Origin: a virus | Strand: one strand, 5' to 3' | IMG/VR virus record: IMGVR_UViG_3300025141_000021 | Length of the DNA stretch: 64,000 bases | Shown here: in pieces, positions 1,389 through 44,480 of the stretch | Position numbering within the stretch: position 1 is the stretch's first letter | Layout of the letters: each line of letters opens with the position of its first letter | Translations under genes and position numbers: made by a program | The notes under the pieces: generated by a model | Told to the model about the DNA's origin: nothing | Database searches by the model: none | The model's input: the letters and a program-made list of their open reading frames with translations, nothing else

Positions 1389-2048
1389 TTAGTCTTTTTT
1401 ATTTTTGTTGAATCCGAAGCCTTTTAGCTTTCTGATGGTGTCGTCGGCATTTTTGTGATATATTCCGATTCCGCCGGCTTGTCTCCATGGAACAATGTTT
1501 GTCTGATAGAAATCGTCAATCAAAATTGCATTGGGCTTGGCCCAGCCACTCTTGCCGGGAGGGTTTGGCGCCATAAAAACTTTATTTGGGGTTATCCCTA
1601 AATGTTTTTCCGCCCAAACTCTTTTTCCTTCTTCTGAGCCGGGTTGCTGCGGAGTTGTAAGAAGTATGGGGTTGTACGGCTTAATAAATTCCCACAGTCG
1701 ATCTGCATCCGGCATCTTTGGCAGATTCGCCCAAAACTTTTCATCGTCGCCAACACGTTTTATCATGTAGCTTATGGCATGCCTAATTTTTCCTTCGCTC
1801 TTACCTATGTGTGTCAACGTGATTTCGTCAACCCCGGCTTCTTTTAATGCTTTTCTTAACTTACCCATTCTTGTCATGCCGCCAGTTGGCTTTCTGTCTG
1901 GAATTGACATGTCTTTAAGGTCTTTGTTTATTACTTCTAGCACGGGCGTAACAAAGTCTGCCAACACACCATCCATATCGCAAAATATTTGAAATTCGCC
2001 TTCAGCTTCATTCAAATACTTCCGCCAATTTTCAAGTATTAGTTTCAT
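1389..2048 (-). CDS. HAD-family 5'(3')-nucleotidase with ENW leader
   Basis: FCDMDGVLADF (DxD) and ILIDD motifs; N-terminus MKLILENWRKYLNE. Confidence 0.8.
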   Translation of the reverse strand: MKLILENWRKYLNEAEGEFQIFCDMDGVLADFVTPVLEVINKDLKDMSIPDRKPTGGMTRMGKLRKALKEAGVDEITLTHIGKSEGKIRHAISYMIKRVGDDEKFWANLPKMPDADRLWEFIKPYNPILLTTPQQPGSEEGKRVWAEKHLGITPNKVFMAPNPPGKSGWAKPNAILIDDFYQTNIVPWRQAGGIGIYHKNADDTIRKLKGFGFNKNKKD

Positions 2049-2428
2049 CCTGCACCTCCAAACATTCTCTTAAACACTTCTGGAGTTTCTGGATTATCTA
2101 GATCCAAGATTTTTGCTTTTATACTCTCGACCTTTTGATCTATCGCTTTTTGAAGACGATGATTTCCATCTAGAACAAATCGGTATTGTCCTCCGCTCTT
2201 TACAACGATAACTGGATACTCTAAACTTGCGGCTGCTACTCTTTCTGCTCCGCGTGTTGGCAAAGGCGGCAATTGTTGCGAGAGTTCTAAAACATTAACA
2301 TCAACAGTCTCATCTCCTAGATAATCAACCACATCTCCGATTGTAACTTTTTCATCGTCAGTTTCCCACGATGTATCGCGCCAATCTTCTGTTATATACT
2401 TCCGCCAGTTTTCAAGTAGGAGTTTCAT
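2045..2428 (-). CDS. ParB/Srx-like domain protein with ENW leader
   Basis: YPVIVV...VLDGNHRLQKA ParB-type motif; leader MKLLLENWRKYITE. Confidence 0.7.
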   Translation of the reverse strand: MKLLLENWRKYITEDWRDTSWETDDEKVTIGDVVDYLGDETVDVNVLELSQQLPPLPTRGAERVAAASLEYPVIVVKSGGQYRFVLDGNHRLQKAIDQKVESIKAKILDLDNPETPEVFKRMFGGAG

Positions 2429-3154
2429 TTATTCCTCCACATCGTGTCTCAATCGCTGTGCCACCGAACGCCCCGCAGAAGCAGCCTTTGTCCCTCTTTC
2501 TGACGGTTTGGGTCGGCCTCTGGCTTGCCATTCTTCTGAGCCGGGGCGCCTTGGTTTCTCACCACCAGGATGAGAATATAGCGTCAATAAAATGGCATTC
2601 TTCTCTTCTTTTGGCACAGCGGCCCAAACATCTTCGCCCCATAAATCTTTTACATAACGAATATAGGCGGCGGCATAATTAATGCCTATTTCATCATCAT
2701 CAGCGATAAGTCTTTGCAATTCACCCATGCTCATATCAGGAGAATAGCCGTCTGGTACATAAAGTCCTTTCTCGGATATTTTTTTGGCGGTTTCTCCTTT
2801 AACCTGTCCAATTCCCATTGATGTATTTTTAAGACCTATGTAACCTAATAAATCTCCTAGTGCTCTAGGATACATTCTTATGTACTCATCCATCAGAATT
2901 CCTATTAGCATTTCCGGCTCGATGCCTTGTTTTCTGGCTGCGGCATGTATCTCATTGGTATATTTTTGGAGGTAGCTCCACGCCTCGTCGGCTTTCTCTT
3001 TGTATTCTGAAGCTTCCCCTTCTTCTGGATCTTTCATTGACCAAGATCCGCGAGGCAAACCAAATACTTCGTCAAGTCGCTCTTCGGTTAAATTAAAGTT
3101 TTCACCTCGAACATCTTTTTGGTATCTTCGCCAATTTTCAAATAGTATCTTCAT
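2429..3154 (-). CDS. Lysozyme/transglycosylase-like fold protein with ENW leader
   Basis: AARKQGIEPEMLIGILMDE, SMGIGQV and GINYAAAY resemble SLT motifs; leader MKILFENWRRY. Confidence 0.5.
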   Translation of the reverse strand: MKILFENWRRYQKDVRGENFNLTEERLDEVFGLPRGSWSMKDPEEGEASEYKEKADEAWSYLQKYTNEIHAAARKQGIEPEMLIGILMDEYIRMYPRALGDLLGYIGLKNTSMGIGQVKGETAKKISEKGLYVPDGYSPDMSMGELQRLIADDDEIGINYAAAYIRYVKDLWGEDVWAAVPKEEKNAILLTLYSHPGGEKPRRPGSEEWQARGRPKPSERGTKAASAGRSVAQRLRHDVEE

Positions 3155-3377
3155 TACAATCCTTCCTGTTCTGAGGTGTTCTCTCTTCTAAGTAGTCAAT
3201 AAGTGAGCATATATCCGAACCCAACGGTGGTTTAAAAAAAGGCAAGGCGCCGTGGATCAATTGAGCCCAGGATGAGACCTGAAGTTTAATTGCAACCAAC
3301 AAGGCAACTTTAAAGTGTTCCCAGTAGCCCTCCTTAACTTCGCTAAGGTGGGTTGTTAAAAGCTCTCGCATTTTCAT
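3138..3377 (-). CDS. Small hypothetical protein
   Basis: Likely start MKMRELL at 3377; HLSEVKEGYWEHF...IHGALPF. Confidence 0.55.
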   Translation of the reverse strand: MKMRELLTTHLSEVKEGYWEHFKVALLVAIKLQVSSWAQLIHGALPFFKPPLGSDICSLIDYLEERTPQNRKDCNEDTI

Positions 3378-3393
3378 CACACAGAATCTCCCT

Positions 3394-4560
3394 TTAGGCC
3401 CGGAGGTATACCCTAAGATCATCGAAATTATTTTGGATTTTGCCGCCGTGGACCGCTGTTAATAAATAGTCAAGAATTTCGCCAACTTCCGGACCTCGAT
3501 AACCCAAGCTCATTATATCCTGACCAGTTATATCCAACTCTTTAGCATTAAGGGGAAGACTTAAAGCTTTGTCGGCCCTGGCTGCTTCTTCGGTGAATCC
3601 GGCGGAGTTGAGAACTTTAATTATGAACGGAAGCTTCTCCCGATGATTGGCTGCATACTGTGTTGGTGGTGCTCCAGATATTGCGTCTTGAGCTAGTTGA
3701 AGATACAGTTTCATTTCTCTAGATAAGGGCAGTCGTTCTATATCACCACCGCGAAGGAAAAAAGAAATAAAGTTGCCCAGTACGAGTTCCTCATCTGTGC
3801 TCTGATCAAGTTTAATTGGGATTGGGCGGAATGAGGGTCCAAACAATGTTTCTCCGACACCAGTACCTTTTAATAAATCAACGAGGTGGTCCGAGTCAGC
3901 TAAGCCCTTGGTCCAAGCCTTCGTTAACTCAGCCAGAATTCGCTCGCGAGCAACTAAATCTAGATTCTCCGCATATCTTTCCATCGCCATAGCTGTCTCG
4001 GGCTCAATATCAAATCCGAATCTAACTGCAAATTGAATTGCTCTAAGGATTCGCAGAGGGTCCTCCTTAAACCTTTCCATTGGATTGCCCACGGCTTTAA
4101 TAACTTTATTTTGGATATCTTGAACTCCTCCGAACAAATCGACTATTCTGCCATTTGTATCTTTTGCCAGAGCGTTCATGGTAAAATCTCTGCGACCTAA
4201 GTCATCTTCAATGGGCGCCATAGGGTCGGTAACAATATTGAAGTCCTTGTGCCCGAAGCCAGTGCTCTCTTCTTTTCTGGGTAGCGCAAAGTCAAAGCTT
4301 TCTCCGTCAATAATTGCCGTGACTGTGCCAAAAGCTGCGCCTATCGGCAAAACCTTACCCATAGGTTTTAGTGTTACAATCAATTCATCTAACGGCATGC
4401 CTCGGACCAAAAAATCAACGTCTTTTGATGCGGGCGTATCAGGCATGATCTCATCGCGGACGGCACCGCCAACAATATAAGTTTCTGCTCCGGCAGCTGC
4501 CAGTGTTGATTGAATTTCCTCAACCGTTGCAGGATCGATGGCTTCAATTAAGAGCTTCAT
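3394..4560 (-). CDS. cca: Class II tRNA nucleotidyltransferase (CCA-adding enzyme / poly(A) polymerase family)
   Basis: VGGAVRD, DVDF, DLGRRDFTMNALA and EDPLRILRA motifs; CCA-type C-terminus (LDITGQDIMSLG..GPEVGEIL); no HD domain; truncated leader MKLLIE. Confidence 0.9.
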   Translation of the reverse strand: MKLLIEAIDPATVEEIQSTLAAAGAETYIVGGAVRDEIMPDTPASKDVDFLVRGMPLDELIVTLKPMGKVLPIGAAFGTVTAIIDGESFDFALPRKEESTGFGHKDFNIVTDPMAPIEDDLGRRDFTMNALAKDTNGRIVDLFGGVQDIQNKVIKAVGNPMERFKEDPLRILRAIQFAVRFGFDIEPETAMAMERYAENLDLVARERILAELTKAWTKGLADSDHLVDLLKGTGVGETLFGPSFRPIPIKLDQSTDEELVLGNFISFFLRGGDIERLPLSREMKLYLQLAQDAISGAPPTQYAANHREKLPFIIKVLNSAGFTEEAARADKALSLPLNAKELDITGQDIMSLGYRGPEVGEILDYLLTAVHGGKIQNNFDDLRVYLRA

Positions 4561-5018
4561 CGCACTGAATCTCCCGGGTTGCCAGTTAAGTTTGCAAGAG
4601 AAATATGAAATACGCGATTGGGCTCGGGATCTGGCTCTCCCCCAACCATCTCCATAATTTGATTGATATAAAATCGCATCTCATCTTGGTTCTCTAAGAC
4701 AACAACCCACGACTTTCTCCCTAATTCGTCGTCGGCCCGCTCAGACCATCCACTTTGTATCCTAATATCGGGGGGTTCTGGGAGTTGACCAGCTTGCAAA
4801 AGTCCCTTAAAATGGCTCCTATGGGGCCTTAACACGCTCTGGTGAGCAAGTGTGACGTGTAGGTTCTTATCTTCCATCGGTACTGCTTCTTCTGGCAGCG
4901 TTTTCATCAGCCGATGGAGGTCTTCAATAACTTCTGGCGGTGGAGTAAGTTTTAATATACCTTTGAATTGAATCTCTTCGTTCAGATACTTCCGCCAGTT
5001 TTCAAGTAGGAGTTTCAC
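4557..5018 (-). CDS. 2H phosphoesterase (cyclic phosphodiesterase) with ENW leader
   Basis: Two HxT/S motifs (LHVTL, FHISL) in 153 aa; leader MKLLLENWRKYLNE. Confidence 0.75.
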   Translation of the reverse strand: MKLLLENWRKYLNEEIQFKGILKLTPPPEVIEDLHRLMKTLPEEAVPMEDKNLHVTLAHQSVLRPHRSHFKGLLQAGQLPEPPDIRIQSGWSERADDELGRKSWVVVLENQDEMRFYINQIMEMVGGEPDPEPNRVFHISLANLTGNPGDSVR

Positions 5019-5743
5019 CAGCCACCATCCCCCGGATCAGAACTAAATACTGAGGAGTCAATAATCTTGAAGTTACCGCCCTTGTCAAATCCAATATTGC
5101 CTTTGTCCAGTTCAAACTTATCAATCTCAAATTCGTGCATTGCTTTGCTTAGTTCTTGGTAAGCTCGTCCTGCAACAGGGGGGAGGACTTGTTGAAGCAC
5201 CTCTGCCCGGGCAGCCCAGGTAGCGGCCGAGGCGACTTCGTTAATCGGTCTATCGTCGCGAAAAGATGCCATAATCATCTTCATGACGTGAAAGGGGTCT
5301 GCCGGGTTAAACTGCAGTTCATCGGCGACTTTTAATAAAGCCTCCTGCTCTTTGGGAAAAGATTTATCTAGAACCCTCTGCATTTGACTTGGCCAAGTGA
5401 TTGGAGGCGTGTTTTCCATCACAATCCAAGAAAAATCATCGGAATGTGCATATGCCTTTGGAAAAATGAATGGGTAACGTTTTGCTGTCTCAAAGTCGTC
5501 CTTGTTCATCTGCATTTTATAGTCGTCAGGGTCATGAATAACTTTGATGACATATTCAGGGTCTCCAACGGGCTCATATACTTTGCGAAAAGAGCCACCT
5601 CCGATCTTTTTGAAACGATCAGATTCCACGATGGCTTGGATTTCTTTTAAGTCATCGGTTGCTTGGAATTCTTTAAGCCACGGGAAATGCTCCGCTTCTC
5701 CTTCTGTTATATACTTCCGCCAGTTTTCAAGTAGGAGTTTCAC
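5015..5743 (-). CDS. Protein kinase-like fold protein with ENW leader
   Basis: IGGGSFRKVY G-loop, VIK lysine, ELDKGNIG catalytic-loop-like segment and KIIDS; GTG start. Confidence 0.7.
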   Translation of the reverse strand: MKLLLENWRKYITEGEAEHFPWLKEFQATDDLKEIQAIVESDRFKKIGGGSFRKVYEPVGDPEYVIKVIHDPDDYKMQMNKDDFETAKRYPFIFPKAYAHSDDFSWIVMENTPPITWPSQMQRVLDKSFPKEQEALLKVADELQFNPADPFHVMKMIMASFRDDRPINEVASAATWAARAEVLQQVLPPVAGRAYQELSKAMHEFEIDKFELDKGNIGFDKGGNFKIIDSSVFSSDPGDGGW

Positions 5744-6636
5744 TTGTCACTCCTGTGATATCCCGATCTTTTTTTGCGCAAGCCAATAGCGACTCGGCTT
5801 TGAGGTTCTGATATGTCAGTTGCTGACGACTGCTGAAGGGTCATAAATATTTCTTTTGTCATTGCCATCATCATTCTTACGTCGGCTAACGCGTTATGCC
5901 ACTCGTCCGTACTAACTTCATACGCCGCGGCTACTGGGCCCATTGATGCTGATGTATATTCGCCATATTCGCCCTTCCTGGATAGTGCTTGCAAAATTCT
6001 TTGTGCTCTTTCGTCTCCCTCTTTAGCTAGAGCCTTAATTAGGGGGTGGTGCCACAGCTTAATCAACATCATGGTGTCGAAGATCGGATAGCTTCGAAGA
6101 TTGGCTTTTAACCCATAGAGATCTGCTCTGCCCTGAACGAAGTCTATATCAAATCTGGCATTCTGTGCAACCAATATTGGGTTGGGCTGGCTCTCGATAT
6201 ATGAGATGAATTCCTTTATGACATCAATTTCCTCGGGCATTCCTTTGGGGTACTTCTCTCGGTATTCATCACTTGGCATGCCGTAACGTGTTAATTTTAA
6301 AGGGAATTTTGGATCCTTGCCCTCTGGCGGTGGTTCTTTATAACCCGCTAAAGTTTCCGGAGTTAACTTTATTTTGTCGTAGAACAGCCCTCGCTCAGCC
6401 TCAACCTCAGTAAACTGCCAGTTGTCTGGGTGTGCAGATACTGCACCAATCTCTGTTATCTGCGCAGTATCCGGCTTAAAGCCTGTGGTTTCCGTGTCAA
6501 AGAATATCCAAGTACTATCACCAAAAGCCTTGAGCATTTCAAATAGCGATTCAATCGAGGACTCAAAAAAGTCATCGTTCAAGATATATGCTTCTTTAAG
6601 CATATACTTTCTCCAGTTTTCAAATAGAAGTTTCAT
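5740..6636 (-). CDS. DEDDh 3'-5' exonuclease (DnaQ-like) with ENW leader
   Basis: FFDTETTG, AQNARFD and HNALAD motifs; leader MKLLFENWRKYMLKE. Confidence 0.85.
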   Translation of the reverse strand: MKLLFENWRKYMLKEAYILNDDFFESSIESLFEMLKAFGDSTWIFFDTETTGFKPDTAQITEIGAVSAHPDNWQFTEVEAERGLFYDKIKLTPETLAGYKEPPPEGKDPKFPLKLTRYGMPSDEYREKYPKGMPEEIDVIKEFISYIESQPNPILVAQNARFDIDFVQGRADLYGLKANLRSYPIFDTMMLIKLWHHPLIKALAKEGDERAQRILQALSRKGEYGEYTSASMGPVAAAYEVSTDEWHNALADVRMMMAMTKEIFMTLQQSSATDISEPQSRVAIGLRKKRSGYHRSDK

Positions 6637-6857
6637 TAGTTTTCATATTCGCCGGCGCCGGGATCGGTTAAATAGTTCACGCGCAAAACTATATTTTTAG
6701 TTTTAACATCTGCCATCATTGTAATTAAATCATTTGCTACAACAGCGGTTAGCTCATCTTGAGAAAGTATAAGTTCTCCCCCCTCCTTCTTAACAATTGC
6801 TGTTAGCAATACGAGAAGATATTTTGCATCGCCTAAATAACTCCTTTTTTTTGACAT
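6636..6857 (-). CDS. Small hypothetical protein
   Basis: 73-aa ORF coupled by 1-nt overlaps to both neighbours. Confidence 0.6.
   Translation of the reverse strand: MSKKRSYLGDAKYLLVLLTAIVKKEGGELILSQDELTAVVANDLITMMADVKTKNIVLRVNYLTDPGAGEYEN
6669..6676 (-). promoter_or_regulatory. Putative late-promoter motif ACTATTTA
   Basis: Same motif as upstream of structural genes; 33 nt before the exonuclease start. Confidence 0.45.
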
Positions 6858-7357
6858 CAGTTACTCCATCCCATTCCTGCTCTTTGGCCTGGAGATTCGT
6901 GGCTGTCAAGCCACTCAAGCGCCTTTTGCAAAGAACTCCTAAGGCCGGGAACACTATCATATTGTTCTATTTCTTCCATCGCAACCCACGCAAAGTCGTC
7001 ATTTTCATAATCTAGTGTTACGTCTCCTGTAAACTCTCTTGTGGCATAAAAATGAATATCGGCCAAATCGTCTTTGCCCTCCATTTGAATTGTCTCTACC
7101 GATACCAAGCCCACACTCCCAAGGTCTAGGCTAGTTTCTTCTTTTGTTTCTCGCCTCATGCCTTCTTCCGCTGTCTCGCCCTCTTCAACGTGGCCGCCGA
7201 CCAAACTCCATTTTCCCGGCATCCAACTGGTGCCTTTGGCGCGCCTAAGAATTAAAGTTTTATTCTGGGAATCAAATATGGCTATCTTCGCAAGTTTAGT
7301 TTTCTCTTCCTCTTGCTCATTTATAAAATGGTGCCAGTTTTCGAAAAGTCGTTTCAT
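6857..7357 (-). CDS. Nudix hydrolase with ENW leader
   Basis: Nudix box GGHVEEGETAEEGMRRETKEET; leader MKRLFENWHHFINE. Confidence 0.88.
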   Translation of the reverse strand: MKRLFENWHHFINEQEEEKTKLAKIAIFDSQNKTLILRRAKGTSWMPGKWSLVGGHVEEGETAEEGMRRETKEETSLDLGSVGLVSVETIQMEGKDDLADIHFYATREFTGDVTLDYENDDFAWVAMEEIEQYDSVPGLRSSLQKALEWLDSHESPGQRAGMGWSN

Positions 7358-9666
7358 GAGTTAATAAAATCTCTCCAATTATTTTGTATGTTTTCTTGCA
7401 AGCTTCTGCGCTTTCTTCCCCACGCATCTTTCTCGCTGTCGCTCAACACTTCTTCAGCAACTCGGATCGCCATGGCCTGTACAGCCTTGGGGCTGACAGT
7501 AAGAACAACTGCGAGCATTGTATTAACAACATCGTCAGGGTCGTCACCAGTAACTTCAAACTCAAGCTCAAACTCTCCTGACTTGATGGCGCTTGATCCT
7601 CCTGTGGAATCTTCAGTGTCCTGGATCCACGTATTCGGGTAGGAGGGCCCACCCACTTTAGCATACTCCATATATTCTGAACCGGAATCAAGGGCGGCCT
7701 CAATTATTTCCTCTCGGAGTCTAATTTTAAATTCGCGGTAGCGGTTCTCTGGGATCGGCGGGACCTTTAGTCCCTCCAACTTTGCATTAACGTGACCGGG
7801 CATGTATTCATCATCGGTTGCAACTTCCCAGCCAGTAGTTCTAAATTCGTCAGTCCCAACATCTTGAGCTAAGTTAAGTATAGCGCCGCCATCCATGATC
7901 CCTTCGCGGCGGAGATATGTCTTGATCTCGGCATGGTAAGCTAGGTACGCCGAAATGAGTTGGTCCTGCATCATCGACAACAGTTCTTCATATTCATCTG
8001 GGCTGGTGAGGTAGCCGGTTACAGTAAAGCCATTGTCGGCAGACATTAAGTTTTCCTTATCGAACTCCATCTCGATTACAACATTTTCTCCCTCTTTTCT
8101 TATATAAGATCGCCCCTCTTCAAACAGATTAATCCCCATGTCACTAAAGTGAGTGCCCAAATATTCCATAGCGGGATAAGCGTTGTGTGGTAATTGTTTA
8201 AACTCATCTAGGGGATAGAGAAATTGCATCGAAGCGTTCACATCAATATAAGCTGATCCGGCGCCGTCGTCTTCTGCATTGGCAGCTACGAGAATCCTTC
8301 TAAAGTCATTAACCTTGAACGTCGGGCGATAGTCATTTTGAAGCCCCTGTATGGCTTGCTCAAATTCCGATACGGTGTTCATACCGATTCTAGATTTAAC
8401 TTCTTCCTCTGGCTCGTGATAAGTTCTCGGGTGCCCATCAAATTTCAGATCCGGCAGCCACCTTTTAAATAGGCTATCAAGCGGAGTGTCGGTGTACGTG
8501 CCCCCAACGAGCGAGAAGTCGTCAAGCAAAATGACAGTACCATCACCAGTGCGCGGTAAGTCCTTCATCTTGTCTTCCTGCTTTGTCTTCAACCAATCCC
8601 TAATCTCATCTCGGAATCCACCGATGTCCGGTCCATATACTCTTTCCTCTGGGACAGCCAGTTGACCAGCCCACTCGCGTGTATTGCGACTGAGAGACCC
8701 TTTCTTTGGATATACAAACTTCCGGATCCTAACTCTCGCGATTGGCTCTATGCCTTCAACGCCTCTTCTTTTGTCTGCAAAAAGCTCTTCATCGTCCCAC
8801 TCAGAAAACTTCCCACCTCCTAGCGGGCCCTCAACAAATTCACCCAACTGTACTAGATTGACGAGGTAGGCTATAGCTCCGTGACCGTGAGCCTCTGTCA
8901 CCGCACAGGCATAGTATTCTCCACCACCCCTGGACGTTGGAGAGTGACAGGACTGGATATGTTCATAGTCCGACATTCTGAGTATGTCTATCGGATGTCG
9001 CGAGAGAACAATTGCCAAAGGCTTTGACTTACCCCCGGATTGCCCCCAGGTGTCTAGCATCTCTTGTGCGTGTGCAGTGCCAACTCCGGACCCAAAATAT
9101 GACCCGGCAAAGTCATACACTTCGCCCTCGGCCTTCTCGGCTGCGTCGTAATCAATCGCGTTAGTGCCGGGCTTTGGCGTCCACTTGGCTTTTTCTGCTT
9201 TCTCCTTGAGCCTCTTATATTTTGTCAGGAACTTACCGATCTTCATTTGCTGGGTTTTAAACTTCCAGCCTTCTTTTTCAAGCTTTGCTCGATGTTCTTT
9301 GTTCGCCTTCTCAAAGCTCTTATTAAGCGGCACGGGCATCCAAATTGGGCGATCTTCTTCCGTCATGCCGGGGTTGCTCCAGATTTCTCGTCTCATCATT
9401 CCGGTGTCGAAGTCAATCTCCCAGGAACCGGGCTGGTTGGGTCTGTATGTCATGCGGTTGGCAAAGTCCTGGAGGCGGCGAGGCATTAACTTCTTGTCAA
9501 ATGGAATTAAAACTCGCATGCTTGACCCGAATAGGTGTTCGAACGGAAGATCATCTTCCTTCATGTCTGTCAAGAAGTCAGCGATATGCTCAAATTCTTC
9601 CTCGTCTATCTCGCGGAGGAGCGTGGGCTCATCCCTAAATTTTTTCCATGCGTCGTGAAATGTCAT
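7354..9666 (-). CDS. Large acidic protein, paralog of 9663..12743
   Basis: Shared block SRHPID(I/V)LRMSD...SCHS...CAV.EA.GHG.IAYLV...RRGVEGI...RVR.RKF. Confidence 0.75.
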   Translation of the reverse strand: MTFHDAWKKFRDEPTLLREIDEEEFEHIADFLTDMKEDDLPFEHLFGSSMRVLIPFDKKLMPRRLQDFANRMTYRPNQPGSWEIDFDTGMMRREIWSNPGMTEEDRPIWMPVPLNKSFEKANKEHRAKLEKEGWKFKTQQMKIGKFLTKYKRLKEKAEKAKWTPKPGTNAIDYDAAEKAEGEVYDFAGSYFGSGVGTAHAQEMLDTWGQSGGKSKPLAIVLSRHPIDILRMSDYEHIQSCHSPTSRGGGEYYACAVTEAHGHGAIAYLVNLVQLGEFVEGPLGGGKFSEWDDEELFADKRRGVEGIEPIARVRIRKFVYPKKGSLSRNTREWAGQLAVPEERVYGPDIGGFRDEIRDWLKTKQEDKMKDLPRTGDGTVILLDDFSLVGGTYTDTPLDSLFKRWLPDLKFDGHPRTYHEPEEEVKSRIGMNTVSEFEQAIQGLQNDYRPTFKVNDFRRILVAANAEDDGAGSAYIDVNASMQFLYPLDEFKQLPHNAYPAMEYLGTHFSDMGINLFEEGRSYIRKEGENVVIEMEFDKENLMSADNGFTVTGYLTSPDEYEELLSMMQDQLISAYLAYHAEIKTYLRREGIMDGGAILNLAQDVGTDEFRTTGWEVATDDEYMPGHVNAKLEGLKVPPIPENRYREFKIRLREEIIEAALDSGSEYMEYAKVGGPSYPNTWIQDTEDSTGGSSAIKSGEFELEFEVTGDDPDDVVNTMLAVVLTVSPKAVQAMAIRVAEEVLSDSEKDAWGRKRRSLQENIQNNWRDFINS

Positions 9667-12600
9667 GCGTTCAGGCTCTTCAGTACTGCTCGTCTAATTG
9701 CCTCTCTCAATACCTTCTCGGGTATGGCTCGCCTGTGTTCCTTCAGGCCTATCACGTTAAACACATCAGTATACCATGCCGGTGGCTTTATAGTTGACGG
9801 CTTCGTACTCATGATCTGCGCAGGGTCGAGACTACTGCGGTCTTGGTCCTCAATGGCAACGGTGCGATCAGTCTGCGCATCGTACCAGTATTTTTCCAAG
9901 CCTGCTGCAAACATAAATCGCTGGTGGACTCTCACAGCCGCGCCACTGAGGTCTAAGTCAATAAAATCTTTCGTAAATATCGTCAGGGTCTCAAATTGAT
10001 GTTTCGGATCTATGCCAAGATCGTGAAACCGACCGAAGTGCCACCTATTCGGAGCTTCGGTATACATAGCGTTTGACAATTCTATCATTTCGGAGACAGG
10101 TGCGTCTGCAATTTTGGCGATCTCTTCTCCCAAATTTTTAAGTCTCTCGGCAGCTTGAGCCCGCGGCGAGTCGGGAGTGAAACTGAGCATGCCCGCTGCC
10201 TCTTTTGAGACTATCTCAGCGCTCTTTTTAAGCTCTCCTCGCCAGTGTACGATCCTTGTAACCCTCTCGTCCCAAAGACCGGCTGCAACGAAGCCCTTAG
10301 CAAAGTCAATCAGATCGTCGATAGGCATTTCTTTTAGGTGCTTTGATATTTCTTCTCTTGTGGGAAGTTTAGCTTCAAGCTCTCTCCTGACTTTCGTCTC
10401 GTCCATCAGCGGCTTCATAGCTCTTCTTGCTGCTGCGAAAACATCATCCATGTGCTTGTCGACATATTCAACAAACTTTGATACAGCCTGGATTTGCACA
10501 TCTGTTGCCTCTGGAGTAATATCAAGCTCCATCCGCAGGAGCAGCCACATCTCTGAGGTGCTAGCGTCGAATCTTTCCGGCAAAGATATAGTGAGGATTG
10601 CTTCGAATTTGCCAGTCTTACTCTTTCTCTTCGTTAGCAGTGGCAGGCTCAAAACTTTATCGGCTGCAGCCATTTCAACGCCGGGGAGGGTTAGCTGCTT
10701 GTGTGCGTATTCCTGCGCTGCGGCTTCAAGTTTCTGAAGCTCCTTTGTCATGTTCTTATAAAAGCTCGGTGACCAAGAGGTGCGAGGATTATAGTCCTGG
10801 ATAGGATACTTTAATTCTGAGTGAACTCTTTGGTTTGTCTGTGCCAACTTAAGTCGCGGCGAATAGCCGGTATTAAATATGATGCTACGGCTCTCTACAT
10901 CGTAGTCCCAGTGTTCATACTCTGGCTCTTCTTCTTCTAGCTGCGCCGCCTTGACATCAAAGGGTTGGGGCGATATATATTCTAGCTTAACCAATGCCTT
11001 GCGGACTGCCTCTACGATATCTTCATGTTCGCCATCATATTCTCTCTCGATCCAGTCAATAAATTGTTCTAGATCGTCGGGCGTTCCACCGTAATCGTCG
11101 CGAGGGATATCAAAGTTAAAACTCACGGTGGATCCCCAGTGATTAATATTCATATCCTCGAAATGAATGTACAAATTCATATCATCAATTATACTTTCTA
11201 TGGTATCTTTGATTTGGACGGTAGTTTGCCAATCATCAAAACCGGGATGTTCGTCTTCAAACATGCTATCTGGAAATTCGACACCGTATGTTGCGCTCAT
11301 CATAACATATGGTTCCCCAGCATCCACCTCATCCACCTCGGCATAGACGGAAGCATGCTTCAGGTTGTTGTTGGCATAATCTGTAAGTTCCTCGACACGC
11401 TGCTCGTACTCATCCCAAAGACCCTCGTCTTCTTCCTCATCGGGGCCGTTAACGTCTGAACCGTCGTAGTAGTCTGCATCGACTCCCATCTTCTCAAAAA
11501 ACTTGTTGAGCGCTTCGCCATCTCTGGTATCACCGTAGGAACCGCCGTGACGGTACAGATCCGTAAACTCCGGCGCTACGAGATCTCCATCATCATTCGC
11601 TACAAAATACTTCTTCTGATTTTCGGCAGCCCACTCGCGAACAAAGCTGACAAAGCCTGGAATCTTTCTGCCGTAGGTTCTGCTTTCTGGTGCTACGAAG
11701 ACAACACCGCTGTCAGTGTCTTCAAATTTTCTTAGTCGGACCCGCTGAGTGGCACCAATGCCCTCGACTCCGCGTCGTGAGTCTCTAAAAATTTCTTTGT
11801 CGTCAAAATCCGAAATGTCTTTCGTCGTGATGGTGTCTGCAACATCTGCATCATAACCGTATGGTGCGTCTGTCAAAAAATTCTCCAAGTCATTGGTCGC
11901 GACGAGGTAGGCAATCGGACCATGACCTTTTGCTTCTGCGACGGCACACTTAAAGTGGCTGCTACCTTCAGAATGACAAGAGCTAATGGAGTCAATATCA
12001 CTCATGCGAAGCACATCAATCGGGTGCCGCGAGATAATAACTGACATGTCTCCAACAGGCTCACGTTCGTAGGCCGCGTTGCTAAAAACTCTGGCAACCT
12101 GCCTCCAGTTCTGCTCTTTAGTATAAAAAGTTTGTTTCTTCTGCCACCACTCTTTCAGGCGGGGTTCAATATCTTTTGACTTATTAATAGCCCTAGATAT
12201 TGTTGTTTGTTCTGTTTTTTGAATTTCCTGGCCGGCCTTTGGGCCCTTGGGGATTACCTTTGTTGTAGTTTTCTTGAGGTTCAACTTTGCGATAACCTCG
12301 TTCTCTTCATATTCTTCACCAGTTTCTAGGCGCCTTTTCTTTTGCTTAACCAGTTCTATCGGAAATTGCTCGCCCTGCAAATACGACACCCCCATGGTCG
12401 ACATAATCTCAAGCTCATCGCCGCTCGGTTCTTTCTGCTGAGATTTGTCTGGTTGCCAGCCTTCATGATGAAGCTGCCAAATGATGTCCGCGAGGTTCTT
12501 ATCGTCACTTGATTCTAGCGGCAAAGCAATACGCATGGCGCCACCGAAAAGCTCATCAAAATCGTAGTCTGTGATTTCCTTGTCTGACATCCAATCATAA

Positions 12601-12743
12601 ATTTTTTCAGCGGCATCTGTAGAAATCTCGTTTAAAATTTCTAGCTTTTCTTGTAGAATTGCCTTCTTCTTTTTTAGATCATTGTGAACTTTAATTTTAT
12701 TCTGAAATTGTTGCCACTTGGGCATAAAATCATTCATGGACAT
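9663..12743 (-). CDS. Large acidic protein, paralog of 7354..9666
   Basis: 1026 aa; same conserved block; GTGA/ATGA-type coupling to the downstream gene. Confidence 0.75.
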   Translation of the reverse strand: MSMNDFMPKWQQFQNKIKVHNDLKKKKAILQEKLEILNEISTDAAEKIYDWMSDKEITDYDFDELFGGAMRIALPLESSDDKNLADIIWQLHHEGWQPDKSQQKEPSGDELEIMSTMGVSYLQGEQFPIELVKQKKRRLETGEEYEENEVIAKLNLKKTTTKVIPKGPKAGQEIQKTEQTTISRAINKSKDIEPRLKEWWQKKQTFYTKEQNWRQVARVFSNAAYEREPVGDMSVIISRHPIDVLRMSDIDSISSCHSEGSSHFKCAVAEAKGHGPIAYLVATNDLENFLTDAPYGYDADVADTITTKDISDFDDKEIFRDSRRGVEGIGATQRVRLRKFEDTDSGVVFVAPESRTYGRKIPGFVSFVREWAAENQKKYFVANDDGDLVAPEFTDLYRHGGSYGDTRDGEALNKFFEKMGVDADYYDGSDVNGPDEEEDEGLWDEYEQRVEELTDYANNNLKHASVYAEVDEVDAGEPYVMMSATYGVEFPDSMFEDEHPGFDDWQTTVQIKDTIESIIDDMNLYIHFEDMNINHWGSTVSFNFDIPRDDYGGTPDDLEQFIDWIEREYDGEHEDIVEAVRKALVKLEYISPQPFDVKAAQLEEEEPEYEHWDYDVESRSIIFNTGYSPRLKLAQTNQRVHSELKYPIQDYNPRTSWSPSFYKNMTKELQKLEAAAQEYAHKQLTLPGVEMAAADKVLSLPLLTKRKSKTGKFEAILTISLPERFDASTSEMWLLLRMELDITPEATDVQIQAVSKFVEYVDKHMDDVFAAARRAMKPLMDETKVRRELEAKLPTREEISKHLKEMPIDDLIDFAKGFVAAGLWDERVTRIVHWRGELKKSAEIVSKEAAGMLSFTPDSPRAQAAERLKNLGEEIAKIADAPVSEMIELSNAMYTEAPNRWHFGRFHDLGIDPKHQFETLTIFTKDFIDLDLSGAAVRVHQRFMFAAGLEKYWYDAQTDRTVAIEDQDRSSLDPAQIMSTKPSTIKPPAWYTDVFNVIGLKEHRRAIPEKVLREAIRRAVLKSLNA

Positions 12744-24606: not shown

Positions 24607-25608
24607 TTAAATTCTCTCCGGGTTATCTGAAAAATGTATTCTTATATCTGGAAAAACTTTCGTCAAATATTTTTTCAGCTCTGCCTCATTTTGTAATTTG
24701 GTGACAATTGAATTATCATCATCATGGCGGATTTTCCACACACCAACTTGCCTTAATACGTCCATTTTGTTTATGACTAGATCGGTAACATCGTTAATTG
24801 TAATTGCTTTCTTAAGCAAATTAATATTCATCCAATTGCACTGCCTGGGTCTTCCGGTAGTGGCACCAAACTCTTTACCAACCTCTCTAATCATATTAAA
24901 AATATCTTGGTCCTTGGGTTGGAATCGCTTGGAGCCTACATAGGTCTCATAACACTTTGCAACACCCCAAACCCTTCTTATGGCTCTATGGGATATTGCG
25001 TTTAATAGCGCTCCAGCAGTAGTGCAATGACTAGAGGTAACATAAGGAAAATCACCCCAGTCAATATCAAGCCCAAATCCTTGAGCACCCTCCAACAGTA
25101 CAACAGGTTCCTCTTTATCATTTTCGTAAAGTTCTTCATATAAATCCACCAAATAGCTATCTAATATTCTGGTGCTCTCTGCTCTGTATCCTGTTCTAGA
25201 ATACTTATCTCGATAGGCTGGGCCATTTCCTCGTCTTGTTGTTCCTAGCCAATCATCTTTCTGATCTTCTGATAGGTGCGCATCAGTAATAATATGAGTA
25301 TTGTTTGCAACTTTAACTAGTTCTTCACAGTCAATACCGCTATTTTGTAAATCTTTAATTTCGTTAAAAAATCTTTCTGGATCGAGAACACAGCCGGAAC
25401 CAATAATTGATTTAACGCCAAAAAACACCCCGGCCGGAATGTGATGGGTTACATATCTTTTCCCCTTGTGAAAAATTGTATGTCCCGCGTTACATCCCCC
25501 ATTGTATCGAATACAATGAGTATAATTATTATTTTCTAATAGATGGTGTGTGACTTTTCCTTTGCCACAATCACCATATTGTAAGTCAACAACTACATCT
25601 GCTATCAC
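24607..25608 (-). CDS. purA: Adenylosuccinate synthetase (short form)
   Basis: QYGDCGKGK, NAGHT, EGAQG, PYVTSS, GATTGRPR and NKMD. Confidence 0.9.
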   Translation of the reverse strand: MIADVVVDLQYGDCGKGKVTHHLLENNNYTHCIRYNGGCNAGHTIFHKGKRYVTHHIPAGVFFGVKSIIGSGCVLDPERFFNEIKDLQNSGIDCEELVKVANNTHIITDAHLSEDQKDDWLGTTRRGNGPAYRDKYSRTGYRAESTRILDSYLVDLYEELYENDKEEPVVLLEGAQGFGLDIDWGDFPYVTSSHCTTAGALLNAISHRAIRRVWGVAKCYETYVGSKRFQPKDQDIFNMIREVGKEFGATTGRPRQCNWMNINLLKKAITINDVTDLVINKMDVLRQVGVWKIRHDDDNSIVTKLQNEAELKKYLTKVFPDIRIHFSDNPERI

Positions 25609-36563: not shown

Positions 36564-37340
36564 CTATTGATGAATTGACATTTTTCTATCATATGCGTTT
36601 CGTTTGATATCGTTTAGCTTAGCAAGATAATCTTCGCGGCGCAGAACTTTAAATGCGAGATTTTCAACCGAAAACGCGCCACCGGTTTCTAGCCCGGTTT
36701 TCCTCATTCTTCGAATTTTGTCTTTCAGCCTTTCGACGGAACTTATCGCCAAATCATGTTCTTCTTCATCAAAAAGATCTTCAATTCGATCTATTTCGTC
36801 CATTAGGCCGGCTGCTTTGAGTCTTATTTGAGATTCGTCAAAATCTTCAACACTTCGCGAAGGGCGCAAAATCCACGCATCGCTCATAATTGAATAAAGG
36901 CCCGTGGATGCATGTGGTTCCGTGTTGTCTTGTACATAAAGCTCAACTTCAAAACCGTGAATCTCTATCTGATGTTCTCTGTTCCAAAGGGCGCGCTTAG
37001 CATTTAAGTATTCGCGTACCAAATCCTCATTTTCATCAACTTGGGCGTAATCTACAATAATGTGTAAATCAATGTCCGAAAACCTCGACCAGTTATAATT
37101 TGCCAGCGATCCGGTCAAAACAATATCTAATGTGTCGACCCATGGAATTGCAAGCCATTGCCAAAAATCTTCTACTATTTCAAGTAAATTTTTGACGATT
37201 TCGGGATTCATCTTTTCGTTATTGTCAACCCATACCTTTTGGTTTAAGTCATCCTGAACTTCGAAACTGGAAAGGTCTATAGCATCAGGATCGACATCCT
37301 CCTGTACGTATTTCTGCCAGTTTTCAATTAGGGCCCTCAT
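36564..37340 (-). CDS. Pol-beta-superfamily nucleotidyltransferase with ENW leader
   Basis: LTGSLANYNW..SDIDLH...ELYVQD; probable start MRALIENWQKYVQE at 37340 (ATGA overlap). Confidence 0.78.
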   Translation of the reverse strand: MRALIENWQKYVQEDVDPDAIDLSSFEVQDDLNQKVWVDNNEKMNPEIVKNLLEIVEDFWQWLAIPWVDTLDIVLTGSLANYNWSRFSDIDLHIIVDYAQVDENEDLVREYLNAKRALWNREHQIEIHGFEVELYVQDNTEPHASTGLYSIMSDAWILRPSRSVEDFDESQIRLKAAGLMDEIDRIEDLFDEEEHDLAISSVERLKDKIRRMRKTGLETGGAFSVENLAFKVLRREDYLAKLNDIKRNAYDRKMSIHQ

Positions 37341-38506
37341 ACGTTTGGGTTTCCAAGCATTATTTTTAGTTCGTCTTTGCGGCCGGATACGCTTCTGGTA
37401 TACCAGCCATTGTATTCTGAATATTTCTCTTCTGGATGATCGCCAAGCCAATTAATTGGTTTGTTAGACCCAAGGACCTTTTGAACTGTTTCTGGATCAC
37501 CAACAAAAGGAACGCCATATCTCGTAATCATGATGTGTGCAATTGCTTTTGACATTTCTGCGTAATATCCGGGCTCATATAATAATTCTGCAGTTTTTTC
37601 TAGATACGCAGTTTTCGCACTTTTAGAGCCATCATGTCCAGAACCAGTCAATTTGACGCCATGGGGAGTTTTTTTACCAAATCGAACAGCGTCAGGGTCT
37701 GGATCGTCATCAACATCTGTGGCTATCCATTCATCATGATCAGCCGGTACATCTGAAGCTTTTTTGAAATCAAAATGGCCTCCTATTTTTGAATAGGCCG
37801 TATCAATAAGACCATATATTTCATCCGTTAAATCGACATTTTTTGGGTCATATTCAAAATCTCCTGTTGGAATGTCGACCCACTTATTCTTTGGAGCTTC
37901 ATAGTCAGCAAAAACTTTTTCGCTCAAATCGATATTTTCTGATAATTCTTGACCCAAAGATCTCATGGTTGCTTTCTTGACTATTCCTGATTTTCCAATA
38001 GCAGCTGCAGCGGTACCCAAATTTAAATCACCAGCGCTGCGATCAGTTCCAGCAGAGCCGGCAACAGTTCGGTCATTAAAAATTGTTTTTAATTCATTTT
38101 CAAGCCAGTCATTGATATTCCAACCAGCTGGAATTTGTTCATTCGGTGACTGCTTTGATATTAAATCAGACAGGCGATTAAGTAGTGTATTTTCAACTCT
38201 GTCATCAATTAATTTAGAATATTCATCATCAACGTTAAACATATCTAAAAATGGAAATTTATCAGTTTTCTGATCCGGTAATTTGCCAACATTCTTTATA
38301 AGGCCTTTAATACCGCCAGCCGCCCTGATAAAATCTACAATTGCGTTACCACCGAGAAGTCGACTAGCTATCCCCGCAACTTCTGAGCCCTTTTTTGCTA
38401 GCAAAACTGTGTCTAAAACCTTTTTTAGCTCGCCCCAGGTGTCTTCGGTTATAATTTCTTCTTGATAGCCACGCCAATTCTCCATTAACACTTTCATATC
38501 AGACAT
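37337..38506 (-). CDS. Two-domain hypothetical protein with ENW leader
   Basis: MSDMKVLMENWRGYQEEIITE; late motif at 38527-38534. Confidence 0.7.
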   Translation of the reverse strand: MSDMKVLMENWRGYQEEIITEDTWGELKKVLDTVLLAKKGSEVAGIASRLLGGNAIVDFIRAAGGIKGLIKNVGKLPDQKTDKFPFLDMFNVDDEYSKLIDDRVENTLLNRLSDLISKQSPNEQIPAGWNINDWLENELKTIFNDRTVAGSAGTDRSAGDLNLGTAAAAIGKSGIVKKATMRSLGQELSENIDLSEKVFADYEAPKNKWVDIPTGDFEYDPKNVDLTDEIYGLIDTAYSKIGGHFDFKKASDVPADHDEWIATDVDDDPDPDAVRFGKKTPHGVKLTGSGHDGSKSAKTAYLEKTAELLYEPGYYAEMSKAIAHIMITRYGVPFVGDPETVQKVLGSNKPINWLGDHPEEKYSEYNGWYTRSVSGRKDELKIMLGNPNV

Positions 38507-40866: not shown

Positions 40867-42009
40867 TTATAAACTTGATGTAGAATTTTGTAAAGTTTCT
40901 TCTTCATCTAAATTATAAAATTCCGAAGCTTCTCCTTGTCGTTTGTCAAACCTCATAACAATTTCCTGTTCCATCAATTGCAAAACCCTATTTCGAAACT
41001 TTTCATCTTTCAGCATGTTAAGCCACTTGGATGCCTGAAATTTAATTTCTTCACCGTCTTCATGAACCAGCGAAAACCATGCACCAGCTTGCTTAATTTG
41101 GTCAGAAGACTTAATCGCTTCAAACCAGCTTAATTCATCCTGAATGCCAATTTCGTCACCCCACATAATCTTAAAGCTACATTGTCTACCTTCGGTACCA
41201 AATCGACTTTTCTTAAGTGTTGCTTTAACCTCTGATCCGATTCTAAACCCTTGATCGTCCGTGATAAAGCTTGCCTTAGCTTTCCTGCCGGTAAGCCACA
41301 CTCGCAATGAGTAGGCATAGATCATAGCCTTGCCACCAGGGGTCATATAAGGCTCTACAAGCGCCTGTGAGGGACTTCTGGTGATGTTCGTCTTGAGTTG
41401 GTTGAGTACTAGGAAAGTGCTCTTAGAATTGGCTATAGGCACTGTTAGCTTAGACATACCTTTTGCCAAAATTCTTGCCTTGACTGCCATAGATGAGAGG
41501 GGATTGAAATCACCCTCAATATCTGAGACTGCTGGCGTAAGTGCCAGCGAATCCCAAATAAAAAGCATCTGGTTATCGTTGGAACCCAACAGCTCTTCAA
41601 TTGTTTCTAAAACAAACTCAACAGAAGTTGCTTGAATATAAAGCAGACTATTAAGATCGCAGCCTGTGCGTTCTAAAAAAGTTGGGTCAATCGCAGATTC
41701 GGAATCGAAGTAAAATACATCAATTCCCATCTTTTGAGCATTTGCGGCAACCTGTGCAGCCATAAAAGACTTTCCGGAAGATTCCAGACCAGCAATCTCA
41801 ATGATTTTTCCAACAGGTATGCCCGCTCGATAACCACGACAAATAATTGAATCTAGCCAGCGAGAGCCAGTTGGGATCCATTCTTTAACCGCGGTTGGAT
41901 TATCATCTTTTAAACTATGAGCGACAGTCATGCCAGCTTTCTTATTAATAAGCTGACGCATCTGATCAATCGATAGCTTGCCAGCCTTAACTTTCTTTGC
42001 CCGGGCCAT
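40867..42009 (-). CDS. recA: RecA/UvsX recombinase
   Basis: Walker A GLESSGKS, FIWDS, NQLK and TPGGKA; start MARAKK at 42009. Confidence 0.92.
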   Translation of the reverse strand: MARAKKVKAGKLSIDQMRQLINKKAGMTVAHSLKDDNPTAVKEWIPTGSRWLDSIICRGYRAGIPVGKIIEIAGLESSGKSFMAAQVAANAQKMGIDVFYFDSESAIDPTFLERTGCDLNSLLYIQATSVEFVLETIEELLGSNDNQMLFIWDSLALTPAVSDIEGDFNPLSSMAVKARILAKGMSKLTVPIANSKSTFLVLNQLKTNITRSPSQALVEPYMTPGGKAMIYAYSLRVWLTGRKAKASFITDDQGFRIGSEVKATLKKSRFGTEGRQCSFKIMWGDEIGIQDELSWFEAIKSSDQIKQAGAWFSLVHEDGEEIKFQASKWLNMLKDEKFRNRVLQLMEQEIVMRFDKRQGEASEFYNLDEEETLQNSTSSL

Positions 42010-42010
42010 C

Positions 42011-42565
42011 TTAGTCTCCCCTCTCTGCGATATCGAGGGCGCGCTGTTCCATGGTATTAAGGGCTTCAAGGGCCCTGCGTTCATCGAGCAGTTCAAATCG
42101 ATACTTCTCACCAAGCCTTATCTTTCTTAAGGCATCCGGATGACGTGCTGCGATACTACGCAGTCGCGACGTTAGAGACCCCTTTTTACGATTCCAGCGA
42201 GCGCAAAGCTCACGAGGGGCAAAAAACCGCTTTCCCAAAAGATCTAGCGGCATATTCTCACCAATATGGGTAGCTAGTTGCGATTCCCTCACAACCAAAT
42301 GACCATTAGAACCTGGAAAGAGATCAATATCGCCATTAACGACCCGGGTGGATCGGGGAGAAATGGAATATCCAAAAACTTCTAGAATTTTTGATACTGA
42401 TATCTCCCTATCTTCGAATACTTCAGGCGTATCTTCCATTTCCATGGTTACCGTAGCAATGTTTTCAATTTCTGGTTCCAAGGGGGTGTCTTTCCCCAGT
42501 GCTAGCAAAAGTATTTCATTCTGCATCTTAATCAGTTCTATAATTTTTTCTTTTTCTATATTCAT
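42011..42565 (-). CDS. Hypothetical protein, possible C-terminal HTH
   Basis: FAPRELCARWNRKKGSL pattern. Confidence 0.55.
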   Translation of the reverse strand: MNIEKEKIIELIKMQNEILLLALGKDTPLEPEIENIATVTMEMEDTPEVFEDREISVSKILEVFGYSISPRSTRVVNGDIDLFPGSNGHLVVRESQLATHIGENMPLDLLGKRFFAPRELCARWNRKKGSLTSRLRSIAARHPDALRKIRLGEKYRFELLDERRALEALNTMEQRALDIAERGD

Positions 42566-43935: not shown

Positions 43936-43962
43936 GTGAGACACCTGATAACCCTGTGCCTC
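43936..43962. repeat. 27-bp direct repeat/hairpin, copy 1
   Basis: gtgagacacctgataaccctgtgcctc; one mismatch to 44454-44480. Confidence 0.85.
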
Positions 43963-43980: not shown

Positions 43981-44430
43981 TTATTTGAAGCTTATAAGCT
44001 CAATTTCAAAATTTAAATTCTTCCCCGCCATTGGGTGGTTAAAATCCAGTACAACAGTGTCTTCGCCTACTGAATCAATTCTCGCGACGGCTTGCTCTCC
44101 CACGGCGCTTTGTCCCTGCACCATGGCTCCTACCTCAAAATCAAAATCTGGAGGGAAGGCTGTTTGCGGAATAGGGTGAAAAAGTTCTGCGTCGGGTTCT
44201 CCATAAGCCTCTTCGGGGGTCAACTTAATTGTCTTCGTTTCTCCGACAGCCATTCCCTTCAAGGCCGAATCAAATCCGGCAATTAGCTCTCCAGAACCAA
44301 CCTTGAAGGATAGCTCTTCTCCGCGGATACGGGAACTATCAAATTCGGTACCATCATCAAATGTTCCGACGTAGTGAATATTCACTCTCGTTCCCTTTCT
44401 CGCTTTTCTTACTTTACTAGTATTACTCAT
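43981..44430 (-). CDS. FKBP-type peptidyl-prolyl isomerase (SlyD/FkpB-like)
   Basis: IHYVGTFDDGTEFDSS, LIAGF, PEEAYG and DFNHPMAGKNLNFEI. Confidence 0.92.
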   Translation of the reverse strand: MSNTSKVRKARKGTRVNIHYVGTFDDGTEFDSSRIRGEELSFKVGSGELIAGFDSALKGMAVGETKTIKLTPEEAYGEPDAELFHPIPQTAFPPDFDFEVGAMVQGQSAVGEQAVARIDSVGEDTVVLDFNHPMAGKNLNFEIELISFK

Positions 44431-44453: not shown

Positions 44454-44480
44454 GTGAGGCACCTGATAACCCTGTGCCTC
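44454..44480. repeat. 27-bp direct repeat/hairpin, copy 2
   Basis: gtgaggcacctgataaccctgtgcctc; GAGGCAC/GTGCCTC stem. Confidence 0.85.

Follow-up and report, generated by a model that had tools for sequence, protein, structure and literature searches.

The 64,000-nucleotide stretch of the IMG/VR virus record IMGVR_UViG_3300025141_000021 (hereafter the window) contains ten genes that begin with a version of the same 14-codon tag, MKLLLENWRKY[LI]xE. We propose that this leader probably plays two parts: its DNA would be a joint at which homologous recombination swaps, adds, and removes genes, and the peptide it encodes would be a targeting propeptide of the T4 type. In related phages, the leader DNA is conserved at silent sites across the clade, homology breaks at the leaders, most large indels end in them, and single cassettes are discordantly similar between contigs whose other genes have diverged.

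Leader copies and tagged genes of the window

The preliminary description of this DNA reported near-identical leaders in front of otherwise unrelated and tightly chained genes, and our comparisons agree with it on each of these points. By direct string comparison, positions 2386-2427 and 5701-5742 are identical (42/42) and the match ends on both sides, 4986-5018 equals 5711-5743 (33/33), and 2011-2048 agrees with the other three copies at 31-33 of 38 positions. Once the leaders are removed, the bodies of the tagged genes have no mutual similarity (best BLASTP E-value of 0.012). The 4-nucleotide ATGA/GTGA overlaps are all correct as listed (2045/2048, 4557/4560, 5015/5018, 5740/5743, 7354/7357, and 9663/9666). 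A repeat search of the window groups the leaders in a family of seven copies, at 2006, 2386, 3112, 4976, 5701, 6594, and 7315, every one of which corresponds to the first 11-14 codons of a minus-strand gene; more diverged copies begin the genes at 37340 and 38497. The only other exact words of at least 20 nucleotides that occur twice in the window are a 12-nucleotide tandem repeat (252-335) and a 21-nucleotide hairpin pair (43942/44460), and 20 shuffles of the window produced no repeated 20-mers or longer. For two leaders encoding the same amino acids with background codon usage, the chance of sharing all of codons 2-11 is about 1.3e-4, and three copies do. The core of the leader (W-R-K) reads TGGCGGAAG in the window, for example at 2398-2406, and TGGCGAAAG in the clade-wide consensus. 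The genes concerned are the following.

1389-2048, minus strand: HAD/5'-nucleotidase-like gene, 219 amino acids; leader 2007..2048, MKLILENWRKYLNE; 4-nucleotide ATGA overlap with the upstream gene
2045..2428, minus strand: cassette g127, ParB-like nuclease-domain protein, 127 amino acids; leader 2387-2428
2429..3154, minus strand: tagged gene of 241 amino acids, function unassigned; diverged leader 3113-3154, MKILFENWRRYQKD
3394..4560, minus strand: CCA-adding tRNA nucleotidyltransferase gene; 18-nucleotide leader remnant 4543-4560 (MKLLIE, the first six codons)
4557..5018, minus strand: tagged gene of 153 amino acids; leader 4977-5018; GTG start
5015..5743, minus strand: cassette g242, 242 amino acids, phrog_4301, function unassigned; leader 5702-5743; GTG start
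5740..6636, minus strand: tagged DnaQ/RNase T-like exonuclease gene, 298 amino acids; leader 6595-6636
6857..7357, minus strand: tagged Nudix hydrolase gene, 166 amino acids; diverged leader 7316-7357, MKRLFENWHHFINE
7354..12743, minus strand: two large paralogous genes, 770 and 1026 amino acids, at the upstream end of the chain
36564..38497, minus strand: separate two-gene unit with diverged leaders MKVLMENWRGYQEE (38456-38497) and MRALIENWQKYVQE (37299-37340); the second gene is nucleotidyltransferase-like

Some of these genes carry only part of the leader. In the CCA-adding enzyme of the window, MKLLIE is followed directly by AIDPAT; the orthologue in contig L032 has a full but degenerate leader, MKLLLENWWKFTRLHE, before the same AIDPAT, so that the window gene has lost the leader core internally. 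The two large paralogues share a block SRHPID.LRMSD...SCHS, match no family, and have N-termini that are only faintly leader-like (DAWKKF and PKWQQF). Many related contigs have orthologues of these proteins (25-30% identity) close to the tagged arrays. A second repeated junction was found at 3373-3392 and 4556-4575 (18 of 20 nucleotides; coding strand GGGAGATTC.GTG.GATGAA). Two genes that lack a full leader, a 94-amino-acid gene and that of the CCA-adding enzyme, have their ribosome site and start codon within it; in the 94-amino-acid gene it probably lies at an internal start (~3377).

Silent-site conservation and cassette exchange in related phages

The leader is widespread among uncultured phages. 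With a degenerate DNA pattern for the peptide, we found that the tag heads several co-oriented, chained genes in at least 119 IMG/VR contigs, where the motif is always at a gene start and usually occurs several times per locus. Five complete genomes (184-204 kb) contain 5-11 copies each, which share a single strand and form one to three arrays; a reversed control pattern had no matches in these genomes. Tagged genes overlap the upstream gene by 4 nucleotides in 51% of the cases, against 11% for untagged genes, and 87% of them either overlap it or sit within 10 nucleotides. As the second codon is AAR, the stop codon of the upstream gene is often contained in the ATGA of the leader itself. A tblastn search with 21 leader residues against 50,697 phage records returned no match, a weak test given the short query and the low-complexity filter, and we found nothing relevant in the literature on the letters of the motif or on a marine capsid-targeting tag.

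After dereplication, our dataset includes 298 leader-bearing genes in 96 contig groups, on which all the codon statistics at silent sites are based. Codons 2-11 of the leader are position-specific, rare in the bodies of the same genes, and common to the clade (CTC CTA CTT ... CGR AAG). Leu 3 is CTC in 59% of the leaders and in 8% in gene bodies, Leu 4 is CTA in 70% versus 12%, and CTT accounts for 98% of the Leu codons at position 5 versus 25% in bodies. The same holds for Arg 9 (CGA or CGG, 79% versus 18%) and Lys 10 (AAG, 70% versus 32%). Codons 12-14 are at background usage (Leu 12, Glu 14). Reduced synonymous divergence of the leaders, beyond the effect of codon bias, had been suspected from the window alone and is borne out in this comparison, for which we took one locus per group and removed paralogues: over codons 2-11, leaders of one genome have a synonymous identity of 0.713 and leaders of different genomes one of 0.654, against 0.41 and 0.42 in the bodies. 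The within-genome excess of the leaders (+0.06) was matched in none of 300 permutations, and the bodies have no such excess. Hence, the identity at silent sites is mainly clade-wide, with a small but real extra homogenisation inside genomes. The preliminary description attributed the identity at third codon positions to recent copying or gene conversion. This does not hold for most of it, which reflects codons shared by some 96 independent groups, but it fits the smaller within-genome part and the 42-bp pair of the window.

Two further observations concern the origin of this uniformity. The complete genome G005 (L125, G005:C1:9000-21000) has eight tagged genes in which the peptide motif is kept, the codons are scrambled, and the spacing is looser; therefore, the tag does not need DNA identity. 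Moreover, the departure from the consensus at silent sites is 0.19 for leaders in arrays or abutting the upstream gene and 0.28-0.30 for isolated ones (p = 0.002 and 2e-6), with about equal departures at the amino-acid level. Both observations fit homogenisation by exchange better than a function at the sequence level.

The idea that the leader acts as a recombination anchor for cargo genes is supported by the loss of neighbours, the breakpoints, and the indels observed in related loci. For the neighbours, we called genes in all loci, clustered the bodies after removal of the leaders, and compared junctions at matched orthologue identity. Among orthologues at 80% identity or more, the neighbouring family is conserved in 30-36% of the cases across leader junctions and in 78-87% elsewhere, that is 2-3 times less often. 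The values are 4-5% versus 50-53% for orthologues at 60-80%, and about 1-3% versus 32-38% below 60%, and distant orthologues keep their neighbours 10-40 times less often across leader junctions. Contrary to what would be expected of a fixed array, content and order thus vary between relatives. Low neighbour conservation is found in all tagged families, leaving no immobile class with which to compare leader divergence and mobility.

The breakpoints coincide with the leaders. Where two genes share the body but follow different upstream genes (136 pairs), the DNA identity stays at baseline as far as position -1 and is high from +1 onwards. Where the upstream gene is shared and the bodies differ (70 pairs), it is elevated across the leader and drops back to baseline past about +42. 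We identified eight independent large indels between related contigs (flanks at 80% identity or more), most of which have at least one end in a recognised leader. L003 and L006 differ by the presence of two cassettes; the alignments on either side share exactly the 42-nucleotide leader, and the surviving leader mixes variants of both flanking copies. An indel of two cassettes (777 nucleotides) separates L009 and L023, between a shared upstream gene and g127; further cases are L047/L085 and L074/L082. Finally, the best tagged orthologue exceeds the median untagged one by more than 30 points in 32 of 180 pairs of contig groups. These discordantly similar cassettes are spread over several families, and families 12 and 38 contribute more of them than g127.

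The cassettes of the window follow the same pattern. One block shared with relatives spans 2432-2007, beginning at the start codon and reaching to where the leader of the following gene ends, and the homology common to the window and L052, L023, and L009 ends at about 2007, in the leader of the 1389-2048 gene. Other shared blocks begin exactly at 5743 (L095, L072, and L035) or at 6636-6637 (L099 and L039). Relatives of g127 at 83-97% amino-acid identity are found in L052, L109, L023, L022, L035, L046, and L009, with different neighbours on both sides. The protein is 89-97% identical to the copies in L022, L023, and L052, and the untagged genes shared with L022 and L023 are at 30-39%. The leader of g127 in the window differs from every orthologous g127 leader at 1-4 positions (AAC/AAT, CGG/CGA, and others) and is identical over 42 nucleotides to that of g242, which likewise departs by 1-4 bases from the leaders of its own orthologues. 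Codon 12 is ATA in both window leaders, and CTC or CTT in the orthologues of g242. This is the pattern expected if a short gene conversion occurred between paralogous leaders, as judged from few sites. In L009 (2249-2290), the g127 copy lacks 24 nucleotides between two TGGCG words (leader W8-R9, body W16-R17), such that the leader is fused straight to the body (MKLLLENW then RDTSW), a microhomology deletion inside the tag.

The tag peptide, a proposed mechanism, and competing explanations

The end of the leader fits, at the sequence level, the (L/I)-x-E site of prohead proteases: position 12 is L, I, V, or M in 334 of 349 leaders (96%) and position 14 is E in 299 of 349 (86%). The T4 protease gp21 cleaves behind L/I-X-E, and for IPIII the ten N-terminal residues are enough to direct the protein to the head (PMC9026906). 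All five complete tagged genomes encode a protease of the gp21 type (Peptidase_S77); the window itself covers no head module. In G001, a tagged gene for a highly acidic protein of 182 amino acids (L122:533-1081; G001:C1:122477-123025) precedes the gp21-like protease gene by about 300 bp, with one open reading frame (ORF) of 101 amino acids in between, and the 356-amino-acid gene that follows the protease has a leader-like WRTFLNE at residues 18-24. It is possible that these 182- and 356-residue proteins are scaffold or core proteins with the same address. On this basis, the leader is probably a T4-style capsid-targeting propeptide, with packaging and cleavage presumed.

In the mechanism that we propose, the leader would do two jobs, as a peptide address and as a DNA joint. 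The peptide, a putative amphipathic N-terminal helix ending in [LIVM]-x-E according to the cutting rule of T4-type prohead proteases, would load unrelated enzymes into the head for injection. Because the leader DNA is near-identical over its first 33-42 bp and tagged genes abut, each tagged gene lies between direct leader repeats, and the T4-type homologous recombination of the phage, which has a UvsX homologue, could cross over between any two leaders. Within one genome such a crossover would delete or duplicate cassettes, and between co-infecting phages it would insert or swap whole genes. Because the crossover would fall inside the reading frame of the common tag, every product would keep the start, the tag, the upstream stop, and the chaining. 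Repeated exchange and short gene conversions would keep the leader DNA uniform, and this uniformity would keep the leader recombinogenic. T4-type recombination is known to need less than 50 bp of homology (PMC2839356). The enzymology of the exchange, including the role of UvsX, is what we infer. The window encodes the following genes of relevance to this model.

40867..42114, minus strand: UvsX/RecA-type recombinase gene
44498-45247: gp32-like gene

Direct selection on the nucleotide sequence might also have made the leaders alike. The DNA would then be an initiation or reinitiation element, or the site of an RNA- or DNA-binding protein, illegitimate recombination would shuffle the genes, and selection would keep the junctions that fall at gene borders. 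This would account for the recurrence of identical rare codons at matching positions in some 96 independent groups, for an identity between genomes (0.65) that almost equals the one within genomes, for a conservation that stops sharply after codon 11 though the peptide is conserved to codon 14, and for the association of positions +13 and +30 (odds ratio of 3.4), as for a weak hairpin. However, G005 retains the peptide with scrambled codons, and the array context affects the conservation of silent sites but not that of amino acids. The hairpin has only -1.6 kcal/mol, its covariation is confounded by lineage, and the CTCCT word shows no association with an upstream Shine-Dalgarno sequence. The indels leave behind a single leader that is in some cases chimeric, as is typical of homologous and not of illegitimate recombination, and we consider selection of this kind unlikely to explain the leaders.

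A system of the integron or homing type, where a phage nuclease or recombinase recognises the leader DNA and initiates the exchange, seems very unlikely, even if the conserved core forms a distinct 33-bp word that is maintained against codon bias, single cassettes with precise ends move between distantly related phages, and the most widespread of them, g127, carries a ParB-like nuclease domain. We found no integrase, tyrosine or serine recombinase, or homing-endonuclease domain among about 40 window proteins scanned (not every small ORF), the leader lacks an inverted repeat like that of attC, and the discordantly similar cassettes are not special to g127. Least probable of all, to the point of being hardly credible, is that the window copies are recent tandem duplications and that the differences between contigs are assembly chimeras at the repeat. 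All the comparison sequences are indeed metagenome assemblies, and repeats are classic sites of mis-joins. Yet the bodies behind the leaders are unrelated, hence no duplications; we found twelve sets of near-identical loci with matching arrays, at least six of which combine contigs from different samples; and five of the genomes either have closing terminal repeats or are rated as complete. The repeat, at 33-42 bp, is shorter than the final k-mers of the usual assemblers.

More specific functions of the leader DNA were tried and rejected. A conserved RNA hairpin (UACUU/AAGUA) would fold at -1.6 kcal/mol, and the association between +13 and +30 is confounded by a genome-specific L/F state. For an anti-Shine-Dalgarno role, with CTCCT at +7..+11 sequestering the upstream Shine-Dalgarno sequence, there is no association with a GGAG-type word (p = 0.26). 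A promoter inside the leader was discarded because, by eye and without a scan, no -10 element stands at a usable distance from the TTGAAA at +14..+19. The view of g127 as a selfish homing gene was abandoned because discordant transfers at high identity are not specific to it.

Several points weigh against a recombination joint that doubles as a targeting propeptide. All the recombination events are inferred from metagenome contigs and mis-joins at repeats are conceivable, though the repeat has just 33-42 bp and identical arrays recur in contigs of different samples. The tagged genes are accessory, and a generally plastic region, rather than the leader, may partly explain the low conservation of their neighbours. 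Since all leaders resemble each other, homology that ends at the edge of a leader is expected under any model that preserves gene boundaries. The clade-wide conservation of silent sites could be due to a constraint on the RNA or DNA that has gone unrecognised, and not to exchange. Finally, repeats of 33-42 bp fall at the lower end of what homologous recombination uses efficiently. The recombination joint with a targeting propeptide nevertheless remains the explanation that we consider probable. A bolder version of it, which we regard as doubtful, is that the nucleotide sequence of the leader is itself a selected trait, a 33-bp in-frame joint making an integrase-free cassette system of this marine T4-like clade, whose word might be recognised by a nuclease or another recombination-initiating factor. 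If this were true, any tagged enzyme gene could pass between distant phages and arrive both addressed to the capsid and chained for expression.

Phage context and comparison with known systems

The window belongs to a large, uncultured, marine T4-like myovirus, of which it forms one long minus-strand stretch. Its recognisable structural genes encode a tail sheath and a baseplate protein; a gp15-like match is faint and below the cut-off, and there is no head module. The genes for replication and metabolism include those of gp32, UvsX, DnaB, a DnaE-type polymerase, ribonucleotide reductase, GroEL, and Hsp20. The nearest cultured relative is distant, with a tail-sheath identity of 33% at best. 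A megablast of positions 1389-9666 against 50,697 phage records gave no match, an exact 30-mer had no occurrence in IMG/VR, and the 770-amino-acid protein retrieved no relative, neither in a search for related loci nor by tblastn against phages.

Other features of the window deserve mention. The gene of an FKBP-type isomerase (43981-44430) is flanked by intergenic exact direct repeats of 21 nucleotides (43942-43962 and 44460-44480), which sit within a GC-rich hairpin (GAGGCAC...GTGCCTC), and the pair looks like a terminator or a border of the promoter-early stem-loop (PeSL) type around a single accessory gene. A homologue of adenylosuccinate synthetase of the PurA/PurZ kind (24607-25608, phrog_1211) could serve 2-aminoadenine (Z) DNA or ordinary purine metabolism. 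Positions 42568-43863 encode a phage protein with the GmrSD N-terminal (DUF262) domain; T4 IPI inhibits host nucleases of the GmrSD family. The 12-nucleotide tandem repeat at 252-335 gives a (V/P)E(V)-rich stretch in a partial lipoprotein-like ORF (2-499), which adjoins the gene of a secreted trypsin-like protease (436-1263).

The cargo of the arrays (nucleotidase, Nudix, exonuclease, tRNA-repair-like, and ParB-like proteins) likely has counter-defence or host-takeover functions. The proposed system would show how large marine phages maintain a rapidly changing set of probably injected enzymes, with one short coding word that would address the protein, end the preceding gene, start the following one, and offer the homology for exchange. 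It would extend the principle of the internal-protein (IP) loci of T-even phages to a widespread uncultured clade, in a form without intergenic DNA. In practice, the leader could be a simple sequence handle to catalogue candidate payload genes and a natural design rule for cargo swapping in phage engineering.

The closest known systems are found in T4-type phages themselves. The IP loci of T-even phages (T4 IPI, IPII, and IPIII) are a variable hotspot of unrelated injected proteins sharing only a leader (PMC12373910, PMC3012670), and recombination within the sequence conserved at the gene starts is held responsible for their exchange, according to the mentions of Repoila et al. 1994 in PMC2839356, PMC3012670, and PMC12373910. 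In both cases, unrelated proteins share a short N-terminal leader ending in L/I-x-E, and the loci are hypervariable, with gene number, order, and identity differing between related phages. However, the leader of the window type has no significant similarity to that of T4 and is longer (14 residues versus 10). The likeness is in the layout only: M-K, E at position 6, an aromatic residue, then L/I-x-E. The cargo differs too, as T4 IP proteins are small inhibitors and those described here are enzymes of 127-298 amino acids (nucleotidase, ParB-like, exonuclease, and Nudix). The conserved element of T-even phages includes the upstream promoter and the translation-initiation region, whereas here it is the coding leader alone, with ATGA overlaps and no intergenic DNA. 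Packaging is proven for T4 IP proteins and predicted for the tagged proteins described here.

The PeSL cassettes of T4-type phages (Arbiol et al. 2010, PMC2839356; PMC4122927) are similar in that short conserved repeats flank accessory ORFs in hyperplastic regions, indels and replacements between close relatives map to the repeats, and the phage itself is proposed to carry out homologous recombination on stretches shorter than 50-100 bp. PeSLs are intergenic and made of a sigma-70 promoter and a terminator hairpin, which renders each cassette transcriptionally independent. In contrast, the leader joint is in the reading frame, lacks an intergenic promoter or stem-loop (its fold has -1.6 kcal/mol), and delivers a protein tag with tight chaining. 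Mini-circle intermediates were shown for PeSLs. The arrays also resemble integrons, being promoterless, in one orientation, punctuated by a recurring short site, and composed of cassettes that distant genomes share singly. They differ from them in that no integrase was found among the scanned window proteins and there is no folded site of the attC type: the joint is coding and the exchange looks driven by homology. Shuffling at IP loci and at PeSLs was thus already known; what is different here is a purely coding joint, devoid of promoter, terminator, and intergenic DNA, and a cargo of enzymes.

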